Virus record (IMG/VR): IMGVR_UViG_3300012157_000001
Span: 115,402-179,401 of that record
DNA length: 64,000 nucleotides
From: a virus
Lineage: Duplodnaviria; Caudoviricetes
Reading direction: 5' to 3' (one strand)
A program made the position numbers and the translations under genes. Shown piece by piece: positions 29,278 through 63,051 of the stretch (position 1 is its first letter; every line of letters starts with the position of its first letter). A model generated the notes under the pieces. It ran no database searches. It was given only the letters and a program-made list of their open reading frames with translations, and was not told the origin of the DNA.

Positions 29278-29460
29278 CTATCCGGTGCTGTCAGTGCTGT
29301 CAAGACGGGCGCGCTGCCGCAGGCACCAGCGGGCGAGCTCGACGTTGTGGAACTCGACCGCCTCGTGTTGCATTCGGATGAGCTCCCGCAGGTATTCACG
29401 CCGAAAAACCGGGTCGGTCAGTTGTTCTTCGACCCATGGTTCGCGGCGAGTGGTGGACAC
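29278..29460 (-). CDS. small hypothetical protein
   Basis: EEQLTDPVFRREY resembles N-termini of HTH antitoxin-like proteins; promoter motif upstream. Confidence 0.45.
   Translation of the reverse strand: MSTTRREPWVEEQLTDPVFRREYLRELIRMQHEAVEFHNVELARWCLRQRARLDSTDSTG
29285..29304 (-). promoter_or_regulatory. TTGACA -35 box with 9-bp direct repeat, upstream of the SNF2 gene
   Basis: CTTGACAGCACTGACAGCAC on the minus strand. Confidence 0.65.
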
Positions 29461-29535
29461 AACACGCCGAGCGTACAGTGCGGCTGGACGCGCGCGCCAG
29501 TTTTACGTGCCGCGCGCGCATTCGATGCACATATC

Positions 29536-30950
29536 GTCGGATATTGTTTGCCTCTCCGTGGGCGCTTCTCAAGGGGGATCCTCGGAGGCATACGGGCCCC
29601 TCCGCGGGCGCTTTTGACAGCAGTGAAGTCGCCGGGCTCAAAAGGGAGAGGCCCGCCGGAGACACGACGCCTCTCCGTGGGCACTGAGCTCCCTCATCTT
29701 TCTCGGAGCAACGATGCCACTCCGCGGGCGCTCGGGGGCAATTTGTCCATGGTCGGAGTCACAACGCCACTCCGCGGGCACCGAAGGAAACAGAGCGGCC
29801 CGGAGGTACGACGCCTCTCCGTGGGCTTCCGCTGGCCAGTCGGGTGTCGTCGGAGGCACTACGCCGCTCCGCGGGCGCTGATGACGAAGCACTACATCAC
29901 CTCGGAGAGACCTCGCCGCTCCGCCGGCTCTGATCGCGCCCCCATCGGGGAACGTCGCAATGTGGCGCATATGCCCGGAGACACGACGCCTCTCCGCGGG
30001 CGCTGATGGCCCCCAACCGGAGATCCTGAATGAACCCCGCCAACGCCTCGGAGACACGACGCCTCTCCGCGGGCGCTGACGGCTTTCCGAAGACAGGCGG
30101 CTCGTGCGCATGTTGCGGCCCGGAGACACAACGCCCCTCCGCGGGCTCTGACGGGAGCATCCTGCTGGTGAGCGGCGCGCCATCGGGGTGCTCTCGGAGA
30201 CACGACGCCCCTCCGCGGGCTCTGCTGGATCGAATGCGGCGTCTGATGGAGCTCGCATCCTCGTCTCGGAGAGAACGACGCCCCTCCGCGGGCTCTGACG
30301 GACGTAGTACGGCACGCCGTACACGCTGCTGGAGAAGCCTCGGAGACACGACGCCCCTCCGCGGGCGCTGATGGTCGTTGCGGCGCCGTAGGCCATTGTG
30401 AAGAGCTGGTCTCGGAGACACGACGCCCCTCCGCGGGCTCTGGCGGTCACGAACACGGAACGCTCCTCGACCTCGACGACTCGGAGAAACCACGCCGCTC
30501 CGCCGGCTCTGATCGCCGGGCACGCGCAGAGCGATGTACTCGATTGCCTGGACCTCGGAGAAACCACGCCGCTCCGCCGGCTCTGATCGTTGCTTCCGCC
30601 GTGGCTTTCGACACTTGGGTCGGCTCGGAGACACGACGCCCCTCCGCGGGCGCTGATGGATGCACCGCCGGAAGTTGGATGCGCGGTCACCCTTTGCTCG
30701 GAGACACGACGCCCCTCCGCGGGCTCTGATTGGGCGTAGATCGAGTTCGCCAAGCCCATCAGGGTGACGTCGGAGACACGACGCCCCTCCGCGGGCTCTG
30801 ATTGGCGGTCAATGCCGAAGACGGTTCGGTCTGGGCGTGGGTCGGAGACACGACGCCCCTCCGCGGGCTCTGATTGGGAGCTCATCCAATTGTCGACACG
30901 ACCGTCAGGACCGGGTCGGAGACACGACGCCCCTCCGCGGGCTCTGATTG
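29536..30950 (-). CRISPR. type V-like CRISPR array, 22 repeats (36 nt) in two blocks
   Basis: plus-strand repeat GTCGGAGACACGACGCCCCTCCGCGGGCTCTGATTG; repeat starts 29536, 29581, 29655, 29702, 29752, 29799, 29849, 29901, 29974, 30047, 30119, 30193, 30265, 30339, 30411, 30480, 30554, 30624, 30697, 30769, 30841, 30915; most uniform next to the cas gene, so leader at the right end. Confidence 0.96.
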
Positions 30951-31022
30951 GGGGCGCCGTAGCGACCCCTTTCGATTCGGGTGCTTGCATTGCATTTTGC
31001 GAGCGGTCCCATGGGCCGCTAC

Positions 31023-33032
31023 TTACTCCGCGGCTGAGACCGTTGGGCCTTCGTCCGTGTTCGCGTTCGTTTCGACGTCGTTTGCGGCATCGCGAGCGGC
31101 TGCCGCCTTTTTCGCGGCACCGGACTGGTCGCGCTCTTTGTAGCGGTCCGGACCGAACGCTGCCTTCAGCGCTGCCTTGAGCTCATGCACGCAGGCGAGC
31201 TGCCGATTGTGTCGTGCCGCCTGGTGGAGCTCGTTCGGCTTGTCCTCGGCCTTGTCCCGAAGCGCGATCTGATCGAGGTCTACCGCGCCGCTCACCTCGC
31301 AGATCTCGAACTGCGTACAAAGCTTCGCCGCGGTCACTCGATAGAAGTCGCGGCGGCGCCCCATTGCGTGGTTGCGCGCACCCGCTGCCATCGCTTCGAG
31401 GTGCTCGTCTTTCCGGCGCCACATCGCGAGCCAGAAGGTGAAAATCGTGTCCGGCGTGGTGAGCCCAAGGATCGCGGCGTACTTGCCGATGTCCGGCTCG
31501 AAGAGATCTTCGTGCGCCGCACGTCGCAGGTCGCGCCAGCGCTTCCACATGGCGTACTCCTCTTCACGCTTGTCGAGTACTTCGAGCATCACAGCCGAGA
31601 CGCGCTTGAGCTTCCAGTGCGCGCGCCACTGCGACAGACCGTGCGCCGCCTCGAACACGCGAGTCGGCTGCGACGCGATCCGCTTGGCGACCTCGGCACG
31701 CGCGCTGTCGAAGAGGGTGTCGGCGACGCTGCGGAGCCTCTCCGCGAACCGCAGCGATTCGACTACTCCCGCCCGGCGGCCACGCTCGTGCGCGCCGCCA
31801 GGAAGCCGGAGCGGCTCGCCGTTGACGTGCGCGACGATCAGCGTCTTGTTCTCGTTGTCCTGCGTCCAGCAGAGGCGCACGTTCACCGTTCCCGTTCCGG
31901 GCGCGCGCTGAATGAGCGGCTCCGTCGGATCGAGGGTGAACTGCAAGCTGTACTCCCAGCGACCCGGCGACTCCTCGCTCGGAACGAGGTACGCCCACCG
32001 CACCTTGGTATCCGGCGGGATCGGCCGGTGGAGCACGACGTCCATGGTCACCCACCAGTTGCCAGCGGGGCCGTCGTACTTCGGCCGGTAGTAGTCCGGT
32101 GCCGCCGCCAATGCCTCGCGCGTCTCGGCGCGCACGCGCATGTGCACGGTCGCGCGCTGCTTGACGCGGCCGCCGTTCGCGCCGCCTTGGTTGCGCACGT
32201 CCGTGATCCGGAGCTCGTTGTTCTTGCCGGCGAGCAGATCGCCCCACGTGGCGTCGTTGATCTCCCAGCCGATCCGGCGGAGCCGCCTGCGGCTATACGT
32301 CGGTCGCCGCTTCGGACGACGGGGCTCGCCGTCGGGCCGCGGCTTCGGGCGCTTGCATGCCGCCGGCAGGTCTACACGCTGAATTGAGTGGTACGTGCCA
32401 ACGGAGAGCAGCCTTGCCTCTTTGATCCAACCACGCAGCGCATCGGCTTGCGTCTCCAGCTGCGCGAGCCGACGCCACGCCTCAGGCCATTGCGCCTCTG
32501 CGAGCATTTCGTCACGCGCCTGAATGTCCGACCGCCGCTTTGCGTGGCGGTCTCCATCATTCGAGCCCCACGCCGAGCGGAGTCGCGCCGACCGCGCCGT
32601 GAACTCTTGCTGCGCCGGCTCCACGACCGCGGCGAACTGGCCACGCATCGGCTTCGCTAGCTCCGCGGCCGCTTTGCGCCAGGCCTTCAGCTCCGTGATC
32701 AGGTCGACCTCGTCCGATACGTCCACGGCTTTCTTCACCGGCTTCACCGGCCGTCCTGTCGCCGCCGTCGCCTTGCGTCGCTTCTCGCGGATGCCTCCGC
32801 GCTTGCCGCCCTTGCCCGCGTGCTCGCCGATCCACTCGTCGAGCTGCTGGTACGCTTCGTCGATCTCGCCGAGCCCCGGCACGGTCTCCGACCGGATCGC
32901 GGCGAACTGTGAGCGGCGCCACCGCTCGATGGTCACGAGCGACTGATAGTACTGCGCTGCCGCGCGCATCTCCGCAAGCGCGAGCGACTCACCGGTCAGG
33001 AACTTTCGAACACCGAACTTGGCAACGAGCAT
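31023..33032 (-). CDS. cas12m: Cas12m-like (type V-U1/V-M) effector, predicted nuclease-dead and C-terminally truncated, 669 aa
   Basis: adjacent to array; AGGAG RBS; YYQSLVTIER, LSVGTYHSI, VVLHRPIPPDTKVRWA, RuvC-I-like TVNVRLCW, LSQWRA, RRRDFYRVTAAKL, RQLACVHELK. Confidence 0.8.
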   Translation of the reverse strand: MLVAKFGVRKFLTGESLALAEMRAAAQYYQSLVTIERWRRSQFAAIRSETVPGLGEIDEAYQQLDEWIGEHAGKGGKRGGIREKRRKATAATGRPVKPVKKAVDVSDEVDLITELKAWRKAAAELAKPMRGQFAAVVEPAQQEFTARSARLRSAWGSNDGDRHAKRRSDIQARDEMLAEAQWPEAWRRLAQLETQADALRGWIKEARLLSVGTYHSIQRVDLPAACKRPKPRPDGEPRRPKRRPTYSRRRLRRIGWEINDATWGDLLAGKNNELRITDVRNQGGANGGRVKQRATVHMRVRAETREALAAAPDYYRPKYDGPAGNWWVTMDVVLHRPIPPDTKVRWAYLVPSEESPGRWEYSLQFTLDPTEPLIQRAPGTGTVNVRLCWTQDNENKTLIVAHVNGEPLRLPGGAHERGRRAGVVESLRFAERLRSVADTLFDSARAEVAKRIASQPTRVFEAAHGLSQWRAHWKLKRVSAVMLEVLDKREEEYAMWKRWRDLRRAAHEDLFEPDIGKYAAILGLTTPDTIFTFWLAMWRRKDEHLEAMAAGARNHAMGRRRDFYRVTAAKLCTQFEICEVSGAVDLDQIALRDKAEDKPNELHQAARHNRQLACVHELKAALKAAFGPDRYKERDQSGAAKKAAAARDAANDVETNANTDEGPTVSAAE

Positions 33033-33104
33033 GGGACTGGTCTCCTTTGTCTTTGGTTCAAGCAGTCGAGGCGAGCGCTTCGCCCCGCGCTGCCATTGAC
33101 CCAC

Positions 33105-33124
33105 GTGCTGCCAGTGCTGTCAAG
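33105..33124 (-). promoter_or_regulatory. TTGACA -35 box with 9-bp direct repeat, upstream of the cas12 gene
   Basis: CTTGACAGCACTGGCAGCAC, 19/20 identical to 29285-29304. Confidence 0.65.
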
Positions 33125-49953: not shown

Positions 49954-50291
49954 GGGGCCGATCGGTTTCGACGTGGAGTGAAAGGAAGGCCTGCGCGCAG
50001 GGAGTAGCCCACCCGGACGGGCTCGTTTAGTTGCGAACGACAACAGCACCGCTCTGCCCATCGCGGCTTGAGCCGTCGCTACGGAGAGGAATCCGAGTAT
50101 CCGAAGCGGCGTGACTACACGGGTCGAACTGCGCGGGGCCGCCTCGACGCAGAGGTCATCACGGCGGCCGAGCATACCGGATCATCGCGATAAGGTGCCG
50201 GAAGCCCGCTGCGAGGCTTAGAGCAGCTACGCGCGTGAACGAAGGTCATCTGGAAGCTTTGCGGACCCGGGTTCGATACCCGGCGGCTCCA
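49954..50291 (+). ncRNA. ssrA: tmRNA, tag ANDNSTALPIAA*
   Basis: 5' GGGGCCGATCGGTTTCGAC; tag ORF 50033-50071; 3' GACCCGGGTTCGATACCCGGCGGCTCCA; G3:U Ala acceptor. Confidence 0.95.
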
Positions 50292-50345
50292 CTCCCGCTG
50301 TCACGCGGGATGGTGGAGGCAAGGACGGTCAGTCCTCGCCCCTTG

Positions 50346-57277: not shown

Positions 57278-57302
57278 GACGTTTTGGGGTCCAGAAAAAC
57301 AC

Positions 57303-57385
57303 GCACCGCTAGACCGTTATGGATACGGGCTCCGCTGTAAACGGAGTGCCTTCGGGCCAGGAGAGTTCGATTCTCTCGCGGTGCA
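57303..57385 (+). tRNA. tRNA-Tyr(GTA)
   Basis: loop CTGTAAA, long variable arm. Confidence 0.85.
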
Positions 57386-57449
57386 CGAAAGAAAGGAACG
57401 AAGTGAAACGCAAGCGAGCGCCGGTAGCTCCGGCAACGAAAGGAGACTC

Positions 57450-57521
57450 GGGTCGTTGGCACCAAGGTGGTGCAGTCGGCTTTTAACCGAAACGAGGCAG
57501 GTTCGATTCCTGTGCGACCCA
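57450..57521 (+). tRNA. tRNA-Lys(TTT)
   Basis: loop CTTTTAA. Confidence 0.85.
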
Positions 57522-57522
57522 C

Positions 57523-57593
57523 GGGCTTGTAGCTCGAAGGTCGAGCAGGCGCCTCTTAAGCGCTCGGTGAGAGTTCGATTCTCTCCAGGCCCA
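57523..57593 (+). tRNA. tRNA-Lys(CTT)
   Basis: loop CTCTTAA. Confidence 0.88.
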
Positions 57594-57599
57594 CAGCAC

Positions 57600-57674
57600 T
57601 CCGGCTTCGTCCAACGGCAAGGACAACGCGCTCTGACCGCGTGAATGGTGGTTCGAATCCATCAGCCGGAACCA
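57600..57674 (+). tRNA. tRNA-Gln(CTG)
   Basis: loop CTCTGAC, CCA. Confidence 0.9.
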
Positions 57675-57681
57675 GAACAAT

Positions 57682-57708
57682 GCTCGCGAGAGCGCTGCTC
57701 TTTGACAA
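57682..57708 (+). promoter_or_regulatory. boxB-boxA antitermination element
   Basis: hairpin GCTC-GCGA-GAGC then TGCTCTTTGACAA. Confidence 0.65.
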
Positions 57709-57809
57709 TCTGCAAGGACGTGACGACGCGCATCGACTGCGATGCGTGTGGCGGTCTCTCCTCGACCAAACAAGACTGAAAGGCGGCGGCCTTCGGGCCG
57801 CCGTCGCAT

Positions 57810-57881
57810 TGCCAGGTGGCGAAGCGGAAACGCAGGCGGCTGTTAACCGCCCTACCGCAGGTTCGAATCCTGCCCTGGCAG
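57810..57881 (+). tRNA. tRNA-Asn(GTT)
   Basis: loop CTGTTAA. Confidence 0.88.
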
Positions 57882-57884
57882 CTA

Positions 57885-57946
57885 GTCCCCGAGTCGCGCA
57901 AGCGACGTGGCGCTTACGACCCCTTCACTGGGCGAGCCCGGGGACG
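57885..57946 (+). pseudogene. degenerate tRNA-Val(TAC)-like element
   Basis: acceptor GTCCCCG/CGGGGAC, loop CTTACGA, collapsed T arm. Confidence 0.4.
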
Positions 57947-57954
57947 AATCGTCT

Positions 57955-58029
57955 GCCGGTCTAGTTCTCGCGGGAGAACCTCCGTTTCGTAATCGGATGA
58001 GAGCGGTTCGACTCCGCTGATCGGCTCCA
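57955..58029 (+). tRNA. tRNA-Thr(CGT)
   Basis: loop TTCGTAA, CCA. Confidence 0.82.
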
Positions 58030-58125
58030 TGCTAGGGAAAAATGCGGGCGTAGGTATCGGCAGATGCGCGTCCCGCAACCCTTAGCAGTTGCCGCTACTC
58101 TGCTGCCGCAGGGTGAGCGGCGCCT

Positions 58126-58197
58126 GCCCCGTTCGACTTCAGGTGAGGTCGCCGGTCCTTCAAACCGGCCAGGTCGGATCGTTACCGACACGGGGTG
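58126..58197 (+). tRNA. tRNA-Glu(TTC), C33
   Basis: stem CCGGT/ACCGG, loop CCTTCAA. Confidence 0.72.
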
Positions 58198-58282
58198 CCT
58201 AGCGCAGCGTGTTCCGGGGGAAGAACCCGGCCCGGGCCCGGTCGTTCCGACACCAGGTCCGGCAAGCGCGACTGCGCGCATC

Positions 58283-58355
58283 GCCCCGACAGCTGACCCG
58301 GTGATAGCGCCTGCCTGAAGAGCAGGAGAGGTTCGTTCGACTCGAACTCGGGGCA
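58283..58355 (+). tRNA. tRNA-Phe(GAA)
   Basis: loop CTGAAGA. Confidence 0.85.
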
Positions 58356-58364
58356 CCGTTCGAC

Positions 58365-58436
58365 CGGAGAGTAGCCTATTGGTCAGGCACTTGATTTGGG
58401 ATCAAGATCAGGCAGGTTCGATTCCTGTCTCTCCGA
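58365..58436 (+). tRNA. tRNA-Pro(TGG)
   Basis: loop TTTGGGA. Confidence 0.88.
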
Positions 58437-58443
58437 CAAGTAT

Positions 58444-58518
58444 GGTGGCCATGGCCGAATGGTTAGGCACGCGACTGTGGCTCGCGGTACGCGGGTTCGA
58501 TTCCCGTTGGTCACCCCA
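58444..58518 (+). tRNA. tRNA-His(GTG)
   Basis: loop CTGTGGC, G-1, CCA. Confidence 0.9.
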
Positions 58519-58519
58519 T

Positions 58520-58592
58520 CTCCCGACCTCTGGACGAGGCGCGTGGTTTCCTAAACCGTGCGAGGCAGGTTCGATTCCTGCTCGGGAGACCA
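58520..58592 (+). tRNA. tRNA-Arg(CCT)
   Basis: loop TTCCTAA, short D arm, CCA. Confidence 0.8.
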
Positions 58593-58594
58593 AT

Positions 58595-58666
58595 GCCCAC
58601 TGACGCGACGGGTGTCGCGGCGCGCCTGTCACGCGCGTGAGACGGATTCGAGTTCCGTAGTGGGCG
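58595..58666 (+). tRNA. tRNA-Asp(GTC)
   Basis: loop CTGTCAC. Confidence 0.8.
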
Positions 58667-58670
58667 CTAC

Positions 58671-58738
58671 AGGCCGGCCTCTGGGAGGTGTGTGGTCTCC
58701 AAAACCGCGCTTGCTCGGTTCGATTCCGAGTCGGCCTG
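58671..58738 (+). tRNA. tRNA-Trp(CCA)
   Basis: loop CTCCAAA, short D arm. Confidence 0.8.
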
Positions 58739-58745
58739 CAAAGAC

Positions 58746-58816
58746 GGGGTCGTCGTCCAATGGGAAGACGCGACGTTCGCAACGTCGAGATGCGGGTTCG
58801 ATCCCCGCCGACTCCA
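58746..58816 (+). tRNA. tRNA-Ala(CGC)
   Basis: loop TTCGCAA, G3:U70. Confidence 0.88.
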
Positions 58817-58821
58817 CGAAT

Positions 58822-58892
58822 GGGGCCTTAGTCCAACGGGAAGACGTCGCGATGGCATCGCGAAAGTGCGGGTCCGACTCCCGCAGGCTCCA
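58822..58892 (+). tRNA. tRNA-Ala(GGC)
   Basis: loop ATGGCAT, G3:U70. Confidence 0.82.
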
Positions 58893-58899
58893 CTAACAT

Positions 58900-58974
58900 C
58901 CGGGTGAAGGCTCAAGGCGGGCCGCGTGTCTGGGGGACACGTGCGGGTTGGTTCGATTCCAATCACCCGGACCA
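58900..58974 (+). tRNA. tRNA-Pro(GGG)
   Basis: loop CTGGGGG, CCA. Confidence 0.8.
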
Positions 58975-58975
58975 T

Positions 58976-59044
58976 GGGGAGTCCGCTGGGGCGGAGTCCG
59001 GTCCTGCAAACCAGACGCGGTCGGTTCGATTCCGACACTCTCCA
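58976..59044 (+). tRNA. tRNA-Ala(TGC), C33
   Basis: acceptor GGGGAGT/ACTCTCC with G3:U70, loop CCTGCAA. Confidence 0.7.
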
Positions 59045-59111
59045 CCGACTCGCGGTTCCAGGGAGGAACTGGACGTCCAAGCCGTTCAAATCGGCAGGCC
59101 GTGAGTTCTTT

Positions 59112-59182
59112 GCCGTCATAGCTCTAAGGCGGAGCACTCCCTCGGTACGGGAGCGGGCTCGGTTCGATTCCGAGTGGCGGCT
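59112..59182 (+). tRNA. tRNA-Thr(GGT), C33
   Basis: loop TCGGTAC. Confidence 0.8.
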
Positions 59183-59187
59183 CTGAT

Positions 59188-59263
59188 GCGGGTGTCTCCT
59201 CAATGGTGAGGACGCTGCCTTCCAAGCAGATGTTGGCCGGTTCGATTCCGGTCACCCGCTCCA
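59188..59263 (+). tRNA. tRNA-Gly(TCC)
   Basis: loop CTTCCAA, CCA. Confidence 0.88.
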
Positions 59264-59265
59264 TC

Positions 59266-59337
59266 GCAGGAGAGGCCGACTGGTGAGGCACGTGCTTGCC
59301 ATGCACGTTCATGCGGGTTCGATTCCCGTCTCCTGCT
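59266..59337 (+). tRNA. tRNA-Gly(GCC)
   Basis: loop TTGCCAT. Confidence 0.85.
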
Positions 59338-59516
59338 CCGAGCTCGGCAGCGAGCTCTAGTGGGAGGCTTGCCAGGTTCTGCACGCACGAGCGTGCACAC
59401 TCGGAGCGTGGTTTATGGAACTACGCGACGCCCTTGGTTCGGTGCCATGTCCACCCCGCGAAGCCTCGGGATCTCGCCATGGAAGGGAACCCCGGGGAGA
59501 AGGCACCACAAATTCT

Positions 59517-59588
59517 GACGCGCAGTTCTGGTGAGCAAACGAGTCTGCAAAACTCGTGAGCGCGGTTCGACTCCGCGGCGCGTCTCCA
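59517..59588 (+). tRNA. tRNA-Cys(GCA)
   Basis: loop CTGCAAA, U73, CCA. Confidence 0.85.
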
Positions 59589-59596
59589 CACGTTAC

Positions 59597-59665
59597 GCCC
59601 CCGCCGACGGCTCGGCGCGCCGCCTTCTAAGCGGAGACGTGGAGGATCGACACTTCCCGGGGGCG
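59597..59665 (+). tRNA. tRNA-Arg(TCT), divergent
   Basis: loop CTTCTAA; atypical T loop. Confidence 0.65.
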
Positions 59666-59672
59666 CCTCAAT

Positions 59673-59748
59673 GTCTCGTTCGTCTAGCGGCCCAGGACAC
59701 GCGCCTCTCACGCGCGTAACGGGGGTTCGACTCCCCCACGAGACGCCA
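59673..59748 (+). tRNA. tRNA-Glu(CTC)
   Basis: loop CTCTCAC, CCA. Confidence 0.92.
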
Positions 59749-59766
59749 GTGACTGCACTGAACAGT

Positions 59767-59837
59767 GCCTCCACCCATGGACGGGTACTGCGGCTACGAA
59801 CCGCGGAAAGAGGGTTCGATTCCTTCTGGAGGCGCCA
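59767..59837 (+). tRNA. tRNA-Arg(ACG)
   Basis: loop CTACGAA, CCA. Confidence 0.82.
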
Positions 59838-59838
59838 C

Positions 59839-59908
59839 GCCCTCGCTGCCGGAAGCAGCGTCTCGGCTCCGAACCGAGAGCGCGGTGGTCCGACTCCACC
59901 CGAGGGCA
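59839..59908 (+). tRNA. tRNA-Arg(CCG)
   Basis: loop CTCCGAA. Confidence 0.78.
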
Positions 59909-59909
59909 C

Positions 59910-59990
59910 TGCGAGGATAGAGCAACGGCTGCTCGACGGGCTCATAACCCGTTGCCTTACGGCTAAGTGGGTTCAATTCCCACCCTCGCT
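59910..59990 (+). tRNA. tRNA-Met(CAT), initiator-like with extended variable arm
   Basis: GGG/CCC anticodon stem, loop CTCATAA, unpaired 1:72. Confidence 0.78.
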
Positions 59991-59993
59991 TCC

Positions 59994-60063
59994 GCCGATG
60001 ACCCATGGTGGGACGAGCGTTTCATAAGCGCTCCCGGCAGGGGTTCGAATCCCCTCATCGGCA
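59994..60063 (+). tRNA. tRNA-Met/Ile2(CAT)
   Basis: loop TTCATAA. Confidence 0.78.
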
Positions 60064-60068
60064 CGAAT

Positions 60069-60140
60069 TCCGGTCTGCCGTGGTCGGCAAGAAAGACTTT
60101 GAATCTTTCGAAGAGGGTCCGATTCCTTCGACCGGAGCCA
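60069..60140 (+). tRNA. tRNA-Gln(TTG)
   Basis: loop CTTTGAA, CCA. Confidence 0.8.
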
Positions 60141-60161
60141 TGACCTTGGTAGGATGGCGCG

Positions 60162-60416
60162 ATGCCAGCCGATCCGTTTCTCGCCGAGTTTGTGACGACG
60201 GCACTGTCGGAGCTGAGCCATAAGTCGCTCCGGCAGATCCAATTCGAGACCGCGATGGTGTGGTACGGGCGCGCGGTCGCGGCGGTGACGCTCGGAAAAA
60301 CGGCCGACGCGATCGAGTACGCGCACGAGTCGATCGAGCACGCCGCGCTCTCGGGAGACATCGGATTGCTTCAAGGCATTCGCGAAGGCCTCCGCAAGAG
60401 CGGCATCGCTCTCTAA
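60162..60416 (+). CDS. small helical hypothetical protein within the tRNA array
   Basis: fills an inter-tRNA gap; AGGA RBS. Confidence 0.6.
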   Translation: MPADPFLAEFVTTALSELSHKSLRQIQFETAMVWYGRAVAAVTLGKTADAIEYAHESIEHAALSGDIGLLQGIREGLRKSGIAL

Positions 60417-60424
60417 AGATTCAT

Positions 60425-60496
60425 CGGAGACAAGGCCCGGGGTGGGCCACTTGTTTCGGGAACAAGCGCTGGCGGGTTCGACTCCCGCGTCTCCGA
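60425..60496 (+). tRNA. tRNA-Pro(CGG)
   Basis: loop TTCGGGA. Confidence 0.82.
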
Positions 60497-60500
60497 CTAC

Positions 60501-60576
60501 GCTGGGCTCCCCGTCGGGTGACGGGCTCTCCCTCACACGGAGGTGCAGAAGGGTTCGAGTCCCTTGCCCAGTACCA
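60501..60576 (+). tRNA. tRNA-Val(CAC)
   Basis: loop CTCACAC, CCA. Confidence 0.8.
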
Positions 60577-60579
60577 TGC

Positions 60580-60659
60580 GGGCCGTGTCCTAAGCCGAAG
60601 GGTGCGTCGGCAGTCGTCTTATCAACGACCGGATCGGGGTTCGACTCCTCCGCGGCCTA
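60580..60659 (+). tRNA. tRNA-Ile(TAT), atypical D arm
   Basis: stem GTCGT/ACGAC, loop CTTATCA. Confidence 0.65.
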
Positions 60660-60667
60660 CAACAAAC

Positions 60668-60740
60668 GCTCTCGGACTGGTCCGGTAGACCGGCTCGCTC
60701 TGATAAAGCGAGTGGCTTGGTTCGACTCCAAGCGGGAGCA
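60668..60740 (+). tRNA. tRNA-Ile(GAT)
   Basis: loop CTGATAA. Confidence 0.8.
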
Positions 60741-60744
60741 CTAC

Positions 60745-60818
60745 GCGCGCCGAGTGTAGCTGGAGAAACCGCGAGCTCGACAAGCTCGATCTGCTGGGTT
60801 CGATCCCCAGGGCGCGCA
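60745..60818 (+). tRNA. tRNA-Val(GAC), C33
   Basis: stem CGAGC/GCTCG, loop TCGACAA. Confidence 0.72.
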
Positions 60819-60859
60819 CAATTCGCGTTCCGCGTCGTGATGGGTTTACGCTTCGGCGC

Positions 60860-61084
60860 ATGCCGGCGTACCCACATCCGCTCGTTGCGCTCGTCGTGGA
60901 CATTTTCGAAGAGGGCGCCGAGTACCCGATCGTTCGACACGAGTTCATCGGGAAGACGCGACAGGAAGCGGAGGGCTACTTTCGGGCGCACCAGCGGACG
61001 GATTCGTTCCTCGCTGGTTGCCTGGTGGGGCACTTCAAGAACATACGCTGCCGCACGAACATGTACTGGAAGCGGCTGCAGTGA
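60860..61084 (+). CDS. small hypothetical protein within the tRNA array
   Basis: fills an inter-tRNA gap. Confidence 0.55.
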   Translation: MPAYPHPLVALVVDIFEEGAEYPIVRHEFIGKTRQEAEGYFRAHQRTDSFLAGCLVGHFKNIRCRTNMYWKRLQ

Positions 61085-61098
61085 CTTCAGACTGATGC

Positions 61099-61187
61099 GC
61101 CGAGGTGGCGGAACCCTGGCAGACGCGCCGCGTTCAGACCGCGGTGTCCTTCGGGACGTGCAGGTTCGACTCCTGTCCTCGGTACCA
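61099..61187 (+). tRNA. tRNA-Leu(CAG)
   Basis: loop TTCAGAC, variable arm, CCA. Confidence 0.92.
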
Positions 61188-61190
61188 AAC

Positions 61191-61276
61191 GCCGACGTGT
61201 TGGAATCTCGGTAGACAAGCGGCCCTGAGATGGCCGTGCTCGTTAGAGCGTGCAGGTTCGATCCCTGTCGTCGGCA
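61191..61276 (+). tRNA. tRNA-Leu(GAG)
   Basis: loop CTGAGAT. Confidence 0.9.
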
Positions 61277-61313
61277 CCGGTTCTGTGGTAGACACGCCTG
61301 GGAAAAGGCACAA

Positions 61314-61742
61314 ATGAAGTCGCGAGCTGCTCGCCCGATAAAGTTCAGCAGGTGGTCCAAATTTGGCAGCTACGTGGCCCGCAAGGTACTGATGAGTGAC
61401 GGAAGAAACGTTACCCAGTATCAACATCGAGCCGTGATGGAAAGGCGGCTGGGAAGGAAGTTGAAGCGCTCGGAGCACGTTCACCACAAGGATGGCGACC
61501 CGTCCAACAACAGAGTCAAAAATCTGGAGCTGATCACAGCATCCGATCACGCAAAGGAACACGCTAAGAACAGACCGCCGGAAATGTTTCGCGGGATCTG
61601 TCCGGAGTGTGGTGCGCGATTCATGAGAAAGGCCCGGTGGGTGCGGAACAATCAAGGCAACCAGGGCAAAGCCGGTCCGTTCTGCGGCAAGAGATGTGCG
61701 GGTAGACACAATGCCCGAATCGGACATTCCCGTAACAGGTAA
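61314..61742 (+). CDS. HNH homing endonuclease
   Basis: YQHRAVME..LGRKL...EHVHHKDGDPSNNRVKNLEL....H; C-terminal CPEC...FCGKRC. Confidence 0.9.
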   Translation: MKSRAARPIKFSRWSKFGSYVARKVLMSDGRNVTQYQHRAVMERRLGRKLKRSEHVHHKDGDPSNNRVKNLELITASDHAKEHAKNRPPEMFRGICPECGARFMRKARWVRNNQGNQGKAGPFCGKRCAGRHNARIGHSRNR

Positions 61743-61744
61743 AC

Positions 61745-61828
61745 GCTCTCCTGGTGGAACTGGTAGTCACGCGGAGCTCAAGCCTCCGTGATCGAAAGAT
61801 CGTGCGAGTTCGACTCTCGCGGAGAGCA
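61745..61828 (+). tRNA. tRNA-Leu(CAA)
   Basis: loop CTCAAGC. Confidence 0.9.
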
Positions 61829-61832
61829 CTAC

Positions 61833-61915
61833 GCTGCCTTGGTGAAACGGAAAACACGCGGAGCTTAAGCCTCCGTGCCCGAAGGGGCTTGCGCGTTCGA
61901 CTCGCGCCGGCAGCA
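61833..61915 (+). tRNA. tRNA-Leu(TAA)
   Basis: loop CTTAAGC. Confidence 0.85.
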
Positions 61916-61978
61916 CTGATTCGCTAACGTACTCAACAACCCAGGCAGGAACCTATGCGACAACGAAGGTGAAGTCCC

Positions 61979-62515
61979 ATGTCCACGCGCACTCTTCTTC
62001 TCTCAAGCTACTACCTCCCGGTGCGGGTCCTGCACTGGCAGGACGCGATCAAGATGGTCTACGAGGGTACGGTTCGTATCGTCGTCGAGTACGACGAGAC
62101 CGTCTCGTCGCCGTCGGTGACGTGGAAGGTCCCCGCGGTGATCGCGCTCAAGCGCTCCGTGCGGAAGTACGTGAAGGGCGCGGTCAAGTTCTCGCGCCGC
62201 AACGTCTACGCGCGCGACAGCTTCAGGTGTCAGTACTGCGGTGGACACTTCTCGGAAGAAGAGCTGACGTACGACCACGTCGTGCCGAAGAGTGGCGGTG
62301 GTCGGCGGACGTGGACGAACATCGTGAGCGCGTGCCGTCCGTGCAACTCGCGGAAGGGCAACCGCTCGTGCGACGACTCCGGGATGTTTCCGCGTCGTTC
62401 GCCTCTGGAACCGAACGTGATGGAGATCCTCTCGCCGGTCATAGATCCGTCGAATGCACCGGATGAGTGGCTCGACTTCCTCGGGGGCATGACGCTCCCG
62501 GCGCGAGTGCGGTAG
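61979..62515 (+). CDS. HNH endonuclease (McrA-like)
   Basis: FSRRNVYARD..CQYCG...TYDHVVPKS.GG...WTNIVSACRPCN..KG. Confidence 0.92.
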   Translation: MSTRTLLLSSYYLPVRVLHWQDAIKMVYEGTVRIVVEYDETVSSPSVTWKVPAVIALKRSVRKYVKGAVKFSRRNVYARDSFRCQYCGGHFSEEELTYDHVVPKSGGGRRTWTNIVSACRPCNSRKGNRSCDDSGMFPRRSPLEPNVMEILSPVIDPSNAPDEWLDFLGGMTLPARVR

Positions 62516-62685
62516 GTCGCTAAGCCGTGGCAGTGACCTACCGCTTCTCGCACCGGATCGGCAAGATGCGGTGCTGCAAGTGCCGGAGCGAATTCGTCGT
62601 TCAACCCGGCGCGCACCCACACGCGGCGTGTCCGAGGTGTCAGTCGCTCTACTACGAGTGGCTCGACTATGAATCGTTCGACATT

Positions 62686-62774
62686 GGAGAGCGAACCGCG
62701 CAGGGCGCGGCGGCCGTTGGAAGCGGTCAGGACGGGATGTGAGTTCCGTTGGGGATCGAGACCTCCGCTCTCCG
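62686..62774 (+). tRNA. tRNA-Ser(GGA)
   Basis: loop TTGGAAG, long variable arm. Confidence 0.78.
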
Positions 62775-62779
62775 CAAAG

Positions 62780-62866
62780 GGATGACGCCGACCATGGTGG
62801 TCAGCTGGCCTTGAATACCAGTGGGGCGCTCGCGAGGGCGCAGCGGCTCGAAACCGTCGTCATCCG
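62780..62866 (+). tRNA. tRNA-Ser(TGA)
   Basis: loop CTTGAAT. Confidence 0.75.
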
Positions 62867-62870
62867 CTAC

Positions 62871-62956
62871 GGAACGTGAAAGCTCAGTGGTGGGCTACTG
62901 GCTTCGAACACCAGGGCACCTTCGGGTGAGCCGTTCGACTCGGCCGCGTTCCGCCA
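62871..62956 (+). tRNA. tRNA-Ser(CGA)
   Basis: loop TTCGAAC, CCA. Confidence 0.82.
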
Positions 62957-63051
62957 GTGGGAAGCGAAAAGTAGCGCTTTTGGTACAAGTGTTGCTGTCC
63001 TACTTCCACTCCCTTGCACCCCGATCCAGTGGTGCGCTAAGACAACGAACG

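Follow-up and report, generated by a model that had tools for sequence, protein, structure and literature searches.

Introduction

The closest described relatives of the locus considered here are the type V-M CRISPR effectors, the Cas12m proteins, represented by MmCas12m2 (8hhl, 8hhm and 8hio; PMC10442227), GoCas12m (8pm4; PMC11013384), PmCas12m and the structures 23vw and 23vu. The four described Cas12m clades all retain a triad in the RuvC site, and a Cas12m with an intact D-E-D triad still binds without cutting (PMC11013384). In Cas12m2, His269 and Arg270 contact the end of the CRISPR RNA (crRNA) scaffold, the duplex measures 17 bp and the 5' 7 nt of the crRNA are disordered (PMC10442227). 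V-M systems on plasmids and prophages are already known, and in 2026 MvCas12m of the myxophage MV-1 was described, which has an intact D-E-D triad and for which no protospacers were found (bioRxiv 10.64898/2026.09.14.751636). Virus-borne Cas12m has therefore already been reported and is not new in itself. The present analysis concerns a cas12m-like gene and its array in a 64,000-nt stretch of DNA (the window; positions 115,402 to 179,401 of the IMG/VR record IMGVR_UViG_3300012157_000001), which is part of a 179,401-nt virus that carries terminal repeats and is rated complete. The locus is like the type V-M systems in the fold and the His-Arg scaffold reader of its effector, a single protein of about 600 amino acids, in its 36-nt pseudoknot repeat ending in G-A-C, in the absence of adaptation genes and in the expected binding without cleavage. 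It differs from them in that none of the triads HEK/HQK, HDD, DED, NED and DND is present, the zinc finger and RuvC-III are deleted, RuvC-II has a one-residue insertion, and the arrays are two-tier, with conserved short guides. The gene product is probably a Cas12m-derived, RNA-guided DNA-binding repressor that is unable to cut.

MvCas12m and the Cas12m-like gene of Rctr197k (KX853510; L066, 5212-8700; annotated as transposase-like) also combine a virus-borne Cas12m and an array with no cas1, cas2 or cas4, but both keep the acidic triad, and Rctr197k also keeps the zinc finger; its leader extends into the end of the gene, and the tail of its array contains a few shortened units. Nuclease-dead regulators derived from TnpB and Cas12f (TldR, PMC10705468; sigma-associated dead Cas12f, PMC10691335, PDB 9n9c) resemble the present system in the exaptation of a dead RuvC and in their fixed regulatory guides, and the sigma-associated dead Cas12f has likewise lost RuvC-III. 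In contrast to these, the locus has a Cas12m scaffold, no long omega or tracr RNA was found, there is no sigma partner, the guides are many and an adaptation leader is kept. Viral mini-arrays and crRNA-like regulatory RNAs use the Cas effector of the host or of their own locus, mostly in cas autoregulation or inter-virus conflict. They share with this locus degenerate repeats with short guides and the presence of arrays in viruses (PMC11656645), whereas in the present case the effector is encoded by the virus itself, together with about 19 short units, none of which matches the viral genome. Neither a zinc-finger-less Cas12m nor conserved short guides in V-M arrays were found in the literature, in which mostly open papers were searched; what appears to be new is this variant and the presence of conserved short guides in its arrays.

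The effector protein

The gene (33032-31023, minus strand) encodes 669 amino acids, in which the WED, REC and RuvC-I/II parts are kept and the zinc finger (TNB) and RuvC-III are deleted. An alternative in-frame GTG start at 33104 would give 693 amino acids; the ATG start is used by most close homologues. The open reading frame (ORF) carries the motifs VVLHRPIP, QWR, RRRDFYR..A..L and RQLA...EL, from which a sequence-only reading had assigned the product to Cas12m, and this was borne out by the PDB sequence search, in which Cas12m alone appeared at useful E-values, and by two structural comparisons. The Foldseek search with an AlphaFold model (predicted local distance difference test, pLDDT, 76.7; predicted template modelling score, pTM, 0.59) gave Cas12m as all four best matches (E 6e-14 to 2e-9), and in the VIA comparison four Cas12m structures led with Z 16.4 to 14.8, the next match being at 12.1; the alignment to 8pm4 (Z 16.4) covered 498 residues with a root-mean-square deviation of 6.4. 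A Pfam search of the protein gave no match. The product is thus confirmed as a Cas12m homologue by both sequence and fold.

The alignment places His335-Arg336 (32025-32030, minus strand) opposite the scaffold-reading His269/Arg270 of Cas12m2, and R336 is unchanged across 27 homologues. The nuclease site had been read as dead, with Arg in place of the RuvC-I Asp and no RuvC-II Glu, and both statements were upheld. Arg386 (31875-31877, minus strand) occupies the RuvC-I catalytic position, where it pairs with the Asp of PDB 23vw and the His of Cas12m2, and Ser581-Gly582 (31287-31292, minus strand) stand at the RuvC-II acidic position together with the one-residue insertion. The structural match to 8hhl stops at residue 539, ahead of the 8hhl zinc finger at 549-572. 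The protein has five scattered Cys and no CxxC pair, and neither a zinc finger nor RuvC-III was found in any of the three frames beyond residue 620, which confirms the reported absence of both and speaks against a frameshift as the explanation of the stop at 31023. No residue of any described Cas12m triad is therefore present (Arg, Ser-Gly and an absent third position), and because the triad, the TNB zinc finger and RuvC-III are all missing, the effector is best filed as a Cas12m-derived variant and not as a canonical member. The core of the fold extends to about residue 632, and the shortest relatives have 578 amino acids. Five Arg residues (R78, R82, R85, R119 and R130) are invariant in the homologue family; they have no reliable mapping to the REC-pocket residues R111/R112/R126 of Cas12m2.

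Loss of the zinc finger and RuvC-III among relatives

The early assignment of the gene as C-terminally truncated had to be revised, and the loss is not peculiar to this phage. The two elements are missing in 27 of 27 close homologues, and among 168 relatives 85 are without the region and 83 have it. A common short tail motif closes many relatives of both kinds, so that the loss is an internal deletion. The protein belongs to a 61-member zinc-finger-less clade (Shimodaira-Hasegawa-like approximate likelihood ratio test, SH-aLRT, 99), and a second such clade with 20 members (SH-aLRT 96) seems to have lost the region independently; the supported branches require at least four changes in its presence or absence, in a tree made by a quick method with midpoint rooting, from which the tail and the described Cas12m proteins were left out. 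The second clade includes P0058, P0063 and P0074. In the zinc-finger-less set the RuvC-I position drifts between R, D, S, A, H, E and K, so that Arg is not a clade signature; in relatives keeping the zinc finger it is mostly Asn or Asp. Four independent assemblies with 87-94% identity share the same gene ending. Relative to the homologue in L032, identity at codon position 2 is 98.7-98.8% whether the N-terminal part or the dead RuvC part is taken, and 67% at four-fold sites; the gene, dead RuvC part included, is under strong purifying selection. No close homologue of the effector was found in GTDB genomes.

Array, scaffold and leader

The gene stops 72 nt ahead of the first 36-nt repeat (30950-30915), close to the previously estimated 70 bp, and the effector's own array runs from 30950 to 29536 on the minus strand as had been described. 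The reported uniformity holds for the leader end, where repeats 1-3 are identical; the array as a whole is not uniform, since later repeats diverge and 14 full spacers are followed by eight shortened units. Units 1-14 (29937-30950, minus strand) have 36-nt pseudoknot-type repeats and spacers of 33-38 nt, while units 15-22 (29510-29936, minus strand) consist mostly of a scaffold core and a guide of about 17-24 nt, unit 20 containing also a scaffold remnant; the majority of these guides recur in related viruses. The minus-strand repeat, whose last letters are G-A-C or G-A-G, is able to form the stem and pseudoknot of the Cas12m2 crRNA. Across 59 distinct scaffolds the variable fourth pair was G-C in 15, C-G in 13, T-A in 4, T-G in 5 and unpaired in 22, and it is the only informative pair, since the parser required pairing elsewhere. 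The same repeat type lies downstream of 10 of 10 homologue genes with downstream DNA read, in L067 as a single repeat. As to a trans-activating crRNA, there was no Rfam match, and no anti-repeat in the sequence near the gene. A second array (genome 31245-32770) has the same scaffold, no cas gene nearby, about 10 full and about 10 short units interrupted by an insert of 220 nt, and only the distal two leader motifs; it is probably used in trans. Stand-alone scaffolds before the virus's own genes were rejected as candidates, as only four weak isolated matches appeared.

The array leader (30951-31136, minus strand) covers the last 37 codons of the gene and comprises three motifs. Two of them form an inverted pair, 34 nt apart, within these codons, and the third is a proximal copy that follows the stop, 55 nt before repeat 1; the motif of the tail is conserved as DNA. 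The Ala/charged tail of the protein is this leader read in frame. In eight viral loci the proximal motif lies 53-55 nt before repeat 1. A pattern derived from the viral leaders was matched by eight stretches in bacterial genomes, four of which (three distinct loci) are CRISPR leaders with the proximal copy 51-54 nt before repeat 1; they belong to type I-G loci (Cas4/1g, Cas2, Csb2) in Myxococcales and Nitrospira genomes and, in the third case, to a type I-C locus (Cas3-Cas7c-Cas8c). The I-C locus is GC-rich and lies on contigs L024 and L026, labelled Woesearchaeota and possibly misbinned. The absence of adjacent cas1/cas2 noted earlier extends to the whole 179,401-nt record, in which no Cas1 or Cas2 was found with positive search controls. 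Because the viral leader shares the motifs and spacing of host I-G/I-C leaders, we infer that a host type I-G/I-C Cas4-Cas1-Cas2 writes the array, as the suggestion of borrowed adaptation had anticipated. The MV-1 preprint doubted host-driven acquisition on account of repeat dissimilarity, whereas here it is the leader that matches; in type I-F, leader shape and not repeat sequence directs integration into foreign repeats (10.1101/2023.05.26.542337). A non-cutting binder with borrowed adaptation is thus quite probable, and the leader suggests, in a form open to testing, how V-M systems that lack cas1/cas2 acquire their spacers. In a relative with 92% amino acid identity (L008, 8008-8253) the proximal leader motif is lost and the array opens directly with short units. 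The L032 array consists mostly of short units, and some lineages look as if only the fixed tier had been kept.

Conserved short guides

None of the 14 full-length spacers of the window is shared with L032 (93% amino acid identity) or L031 (87%), whereas short guides are shared in the same order. The unit-15 guide (29877-29900, minus strand), whose reverse complement starts with ATG, is identical over 20-24 nt in the three viruses compared, and the identical runs between the window and L032 measure 20, 16, 17, 21 (17 before the scaffold remnant) and 13 nt. Guide positions 1-16 are identical to L032 at 89 of 96 sites and the interleaved scaffold linkers at 27 of 44 (Fisher 1e-5); for L031 against L032 the values are 52/64 and 14/29. 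The guides are identical over 13-24 nt between relatives whose synonymous sites are 57-67% identical. A recent block transfer is argued against because the linkers have diverged between identical guides. In Cas12m2 the duplex is 17 bp, which agrees with the conserved length, and what has been lost corresponds to the disordered 5' end. Moreover, ATG occurs at position 4 in seven of 29 distinct short guides, with 0.42 expected from GC-matched windows (P 2e-7 uncorrected, about 5e-6 after correction for positions), compared with 1/30 and 0/32 in full spacers. In other short guides the sequence is antisense to an ATG or a Shine-Dalgarno-like run, and since start-like motifs occur in both orientations, DNA targets fit better than mRNA targets. 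A protospacer adjacent motif (PAM) between the ribosome-binding site and the start codon would explain position 4.

The spacers and guides found no target in any set searched. Spacers and guides had no credible match in GenBank phages and PLSDB plasmids; an IMG/VR search with the repeat, the newest spacer and two short guides gave none or chance matches; and 401 genomes of the Myxococcales-containing phylum gave nine matches against eight in the control, the matches by BLAST being noise. In all 383 genomes of the best-matching family there were no exact matches, and the 13 one-mismatch matches (about 15 in the control) all lay inside ORFs; a second guide had no match in 151 genomes. Self-targeting was rejected, as the best matches of 13-15/18 with seed runs of 9-11 nt are at chance level, and so was one apparent gene-start match, which follows a transposase-like element. 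Either the host species lies outside the searched genomes or other mobile elements carry the targets.

Proposed mechanism and alternative explanations

In the mechanism that we propose, transcription of the gene and array would proceed on the minus strand, with a pseudoknot scaffold and a guide produced from every unit; the complex would open an R-loop, dependent on a PAM and about 17-18 bp long, and block transcription or replication, as Cas12m does; and a host I-G or I-C Cas4-Cas1-Cas2 would insert new spacers next to the copied leader, so that one tier of guides is variable and directed against competing elements. These three steps are jointly rated as likely. In a further step, for which the balance lies slightly on the side of doubt, useful old spacers would be trimmed to the length read by the protein, the repeat that follows would lose its dispensable 5' part, and the trimmed guides would persist as a fixed tier directed at gene starts. 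Such a fixed regulatory tier is a tentative proposal, a little short of evenly balanced, and the whole picture of a minimal two-tier programmable repressor, with a host-written adaptive tier and about 19 fixed short guides at gene starts of host or competitors, is possible but still more tentative. If true, it would reveal how, within a single array, adaptive spacers can become guides with a lasting regulatory role; the virus would encode a multiplexed RNA-guided regulon and enlarge it by shortening former spacers and making them permanent, and the guide targets would name the genes that a myxobacterial virus needs silenced. Several results weigh against this interpretation. Besides the lack of any target, guide conservation between the window and L031 is not significant (46/64, P 0.09), and the position-4 pattern was noticed post hoc, with a stop following in one of the seven cases. 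The occurrence of any ATG or CAT shows an increase in full spacers as well (14/30) and does not separate the two classes (Fisher 0.18). The model has a pTM of 0.59 with low confidence at residues 584-609, and PmCas12m is crippled by engineered deletion of the same domain, as removal of TNB 551-578 sharply lowers or abolishes its activity (10.64898/2026.03.26.714355). The natural loss of that domain would imply compensating changes useful for smaller scaffolds in CRISPR interference and base editing, and the conserved segment 584-609 is a candidate replacement for the zinc finger.

The short units might instead be old spacers in erosion, conserved because trailing spacers are inherited, with the effector working only in inter-virus competition. 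Trailing spacers are the oldest in any array, the Rctr197k Cas12m with its intact triad also has a few shortened trailing units, and identity is likewise 83% in the DNA immediately downstream, where a small ORF is probably present; the missing targets and the background-level comparison with L031 also suit this explanation. Against erosion stand perfect runs of 20, 16, 17, 17+ and 13 nt alternating with linkers at 61%, lengths clustered at 17-24 nt with both stems kept, a unit order preserved while other units are gained or lost, and an excess of ATG at position 4; we regard it as unlikely, though a real contender. That the collapse of the whole system, or a frameshift or assembly artefact, accounts for the protein is extremely improbable: all catalytic positions are lost and the engineered deletion is crippling, but the same region is absent from 85 of 168 relatives in at least two supported clades, purifying selection is strong, no frame restores the region, and the leader-end repeats are uniform while spacers differ between relatives.

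The two remaining alternatives keep a working protein and change its mode of action. As a targeting module for a partner that does the silencing, the dead protein could use the surface that loss of the zinc finger might free, and a SNF2 helicase gene does follow the array on the same strand with a shared upstream motif, in a layout found also in L031 and L032. There is, however, no conserved neighbour in the distant loci L012, L017-L020 and L067, and the helicase has its own promoter-like motif, which occurs also elsewhere in the genome; the helicase, which was not seen outside close relatives, was rejected as a conserved partner, and this mode of action is improbable. A block of translation at ribosome-binding sites and start codons, acting on RNA and not DNA, is even less probable. 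Several guides are antisense to Shine-Dalgarno-like runs or start codons, and 25 of 29 hold one or the other against 16.9 in shuffles, yet about half carry a sense ATG, which is unable to pair with mRNA, and the DNA-binding WED/REC architecture is kept.

Virus, host and neighbouring features

The record encodes 32 tRNAs, a transfer-messenger RNA (tmRNA), DnaB, RecET, an integrase and endolysins; the tmRNA lies at 49954-50292 and a cluster of 31 tRNAs at about 57300-62960 of the window. Terminase PF03237 and A32 ATPase were not found in targeted searches, and no terminase, portal or HK97 capsid appeared in the top-ranking families of 71 ORFs. The label phage, used from the outset, is supported by the IMG/VR record and the accessory genes, while no terminase or capsid gene was found. 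A candidate capsid protein in the same genome (L002, 1401-2381) has viral hypotheticals as Atlas neighbours, the nearest named family being corticovirus P2 (score 0.76, a lead only); its single-sequence model was unusable (pLDDT 39). The virus may be tailless. Over 66-74 nt, the 3' end of the tmRNA matches five genomes, all from one family of the Myxococcales-containing phylum, at 81-90% identity; this was the one phylum searched, and the host is tentatively placed in this myxobacterial family. With genomes of up to 16 Mb, the family is presumably Polyangiaceae.

Upstream of the gene lies a putative promoter- or operator-like motif with a perfect -35 hexamer (33088-33123, minus strand), which is also kept upstream of the homologues in L008 and L014. 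Near-copies occur at 29303 (minus strand) and 29614 (plus strand), and a further copy at genome 65290 (plus strand). L031 and L032 have related sequences at the position of the copy within the array tail, so that this copy may serve as an operator or an antisense promoter and not as a guide. Between the array and the helicase gene lies a 60-amino-acid ORF (29278-29460, minus strand), apparently present also in L031 and L032.

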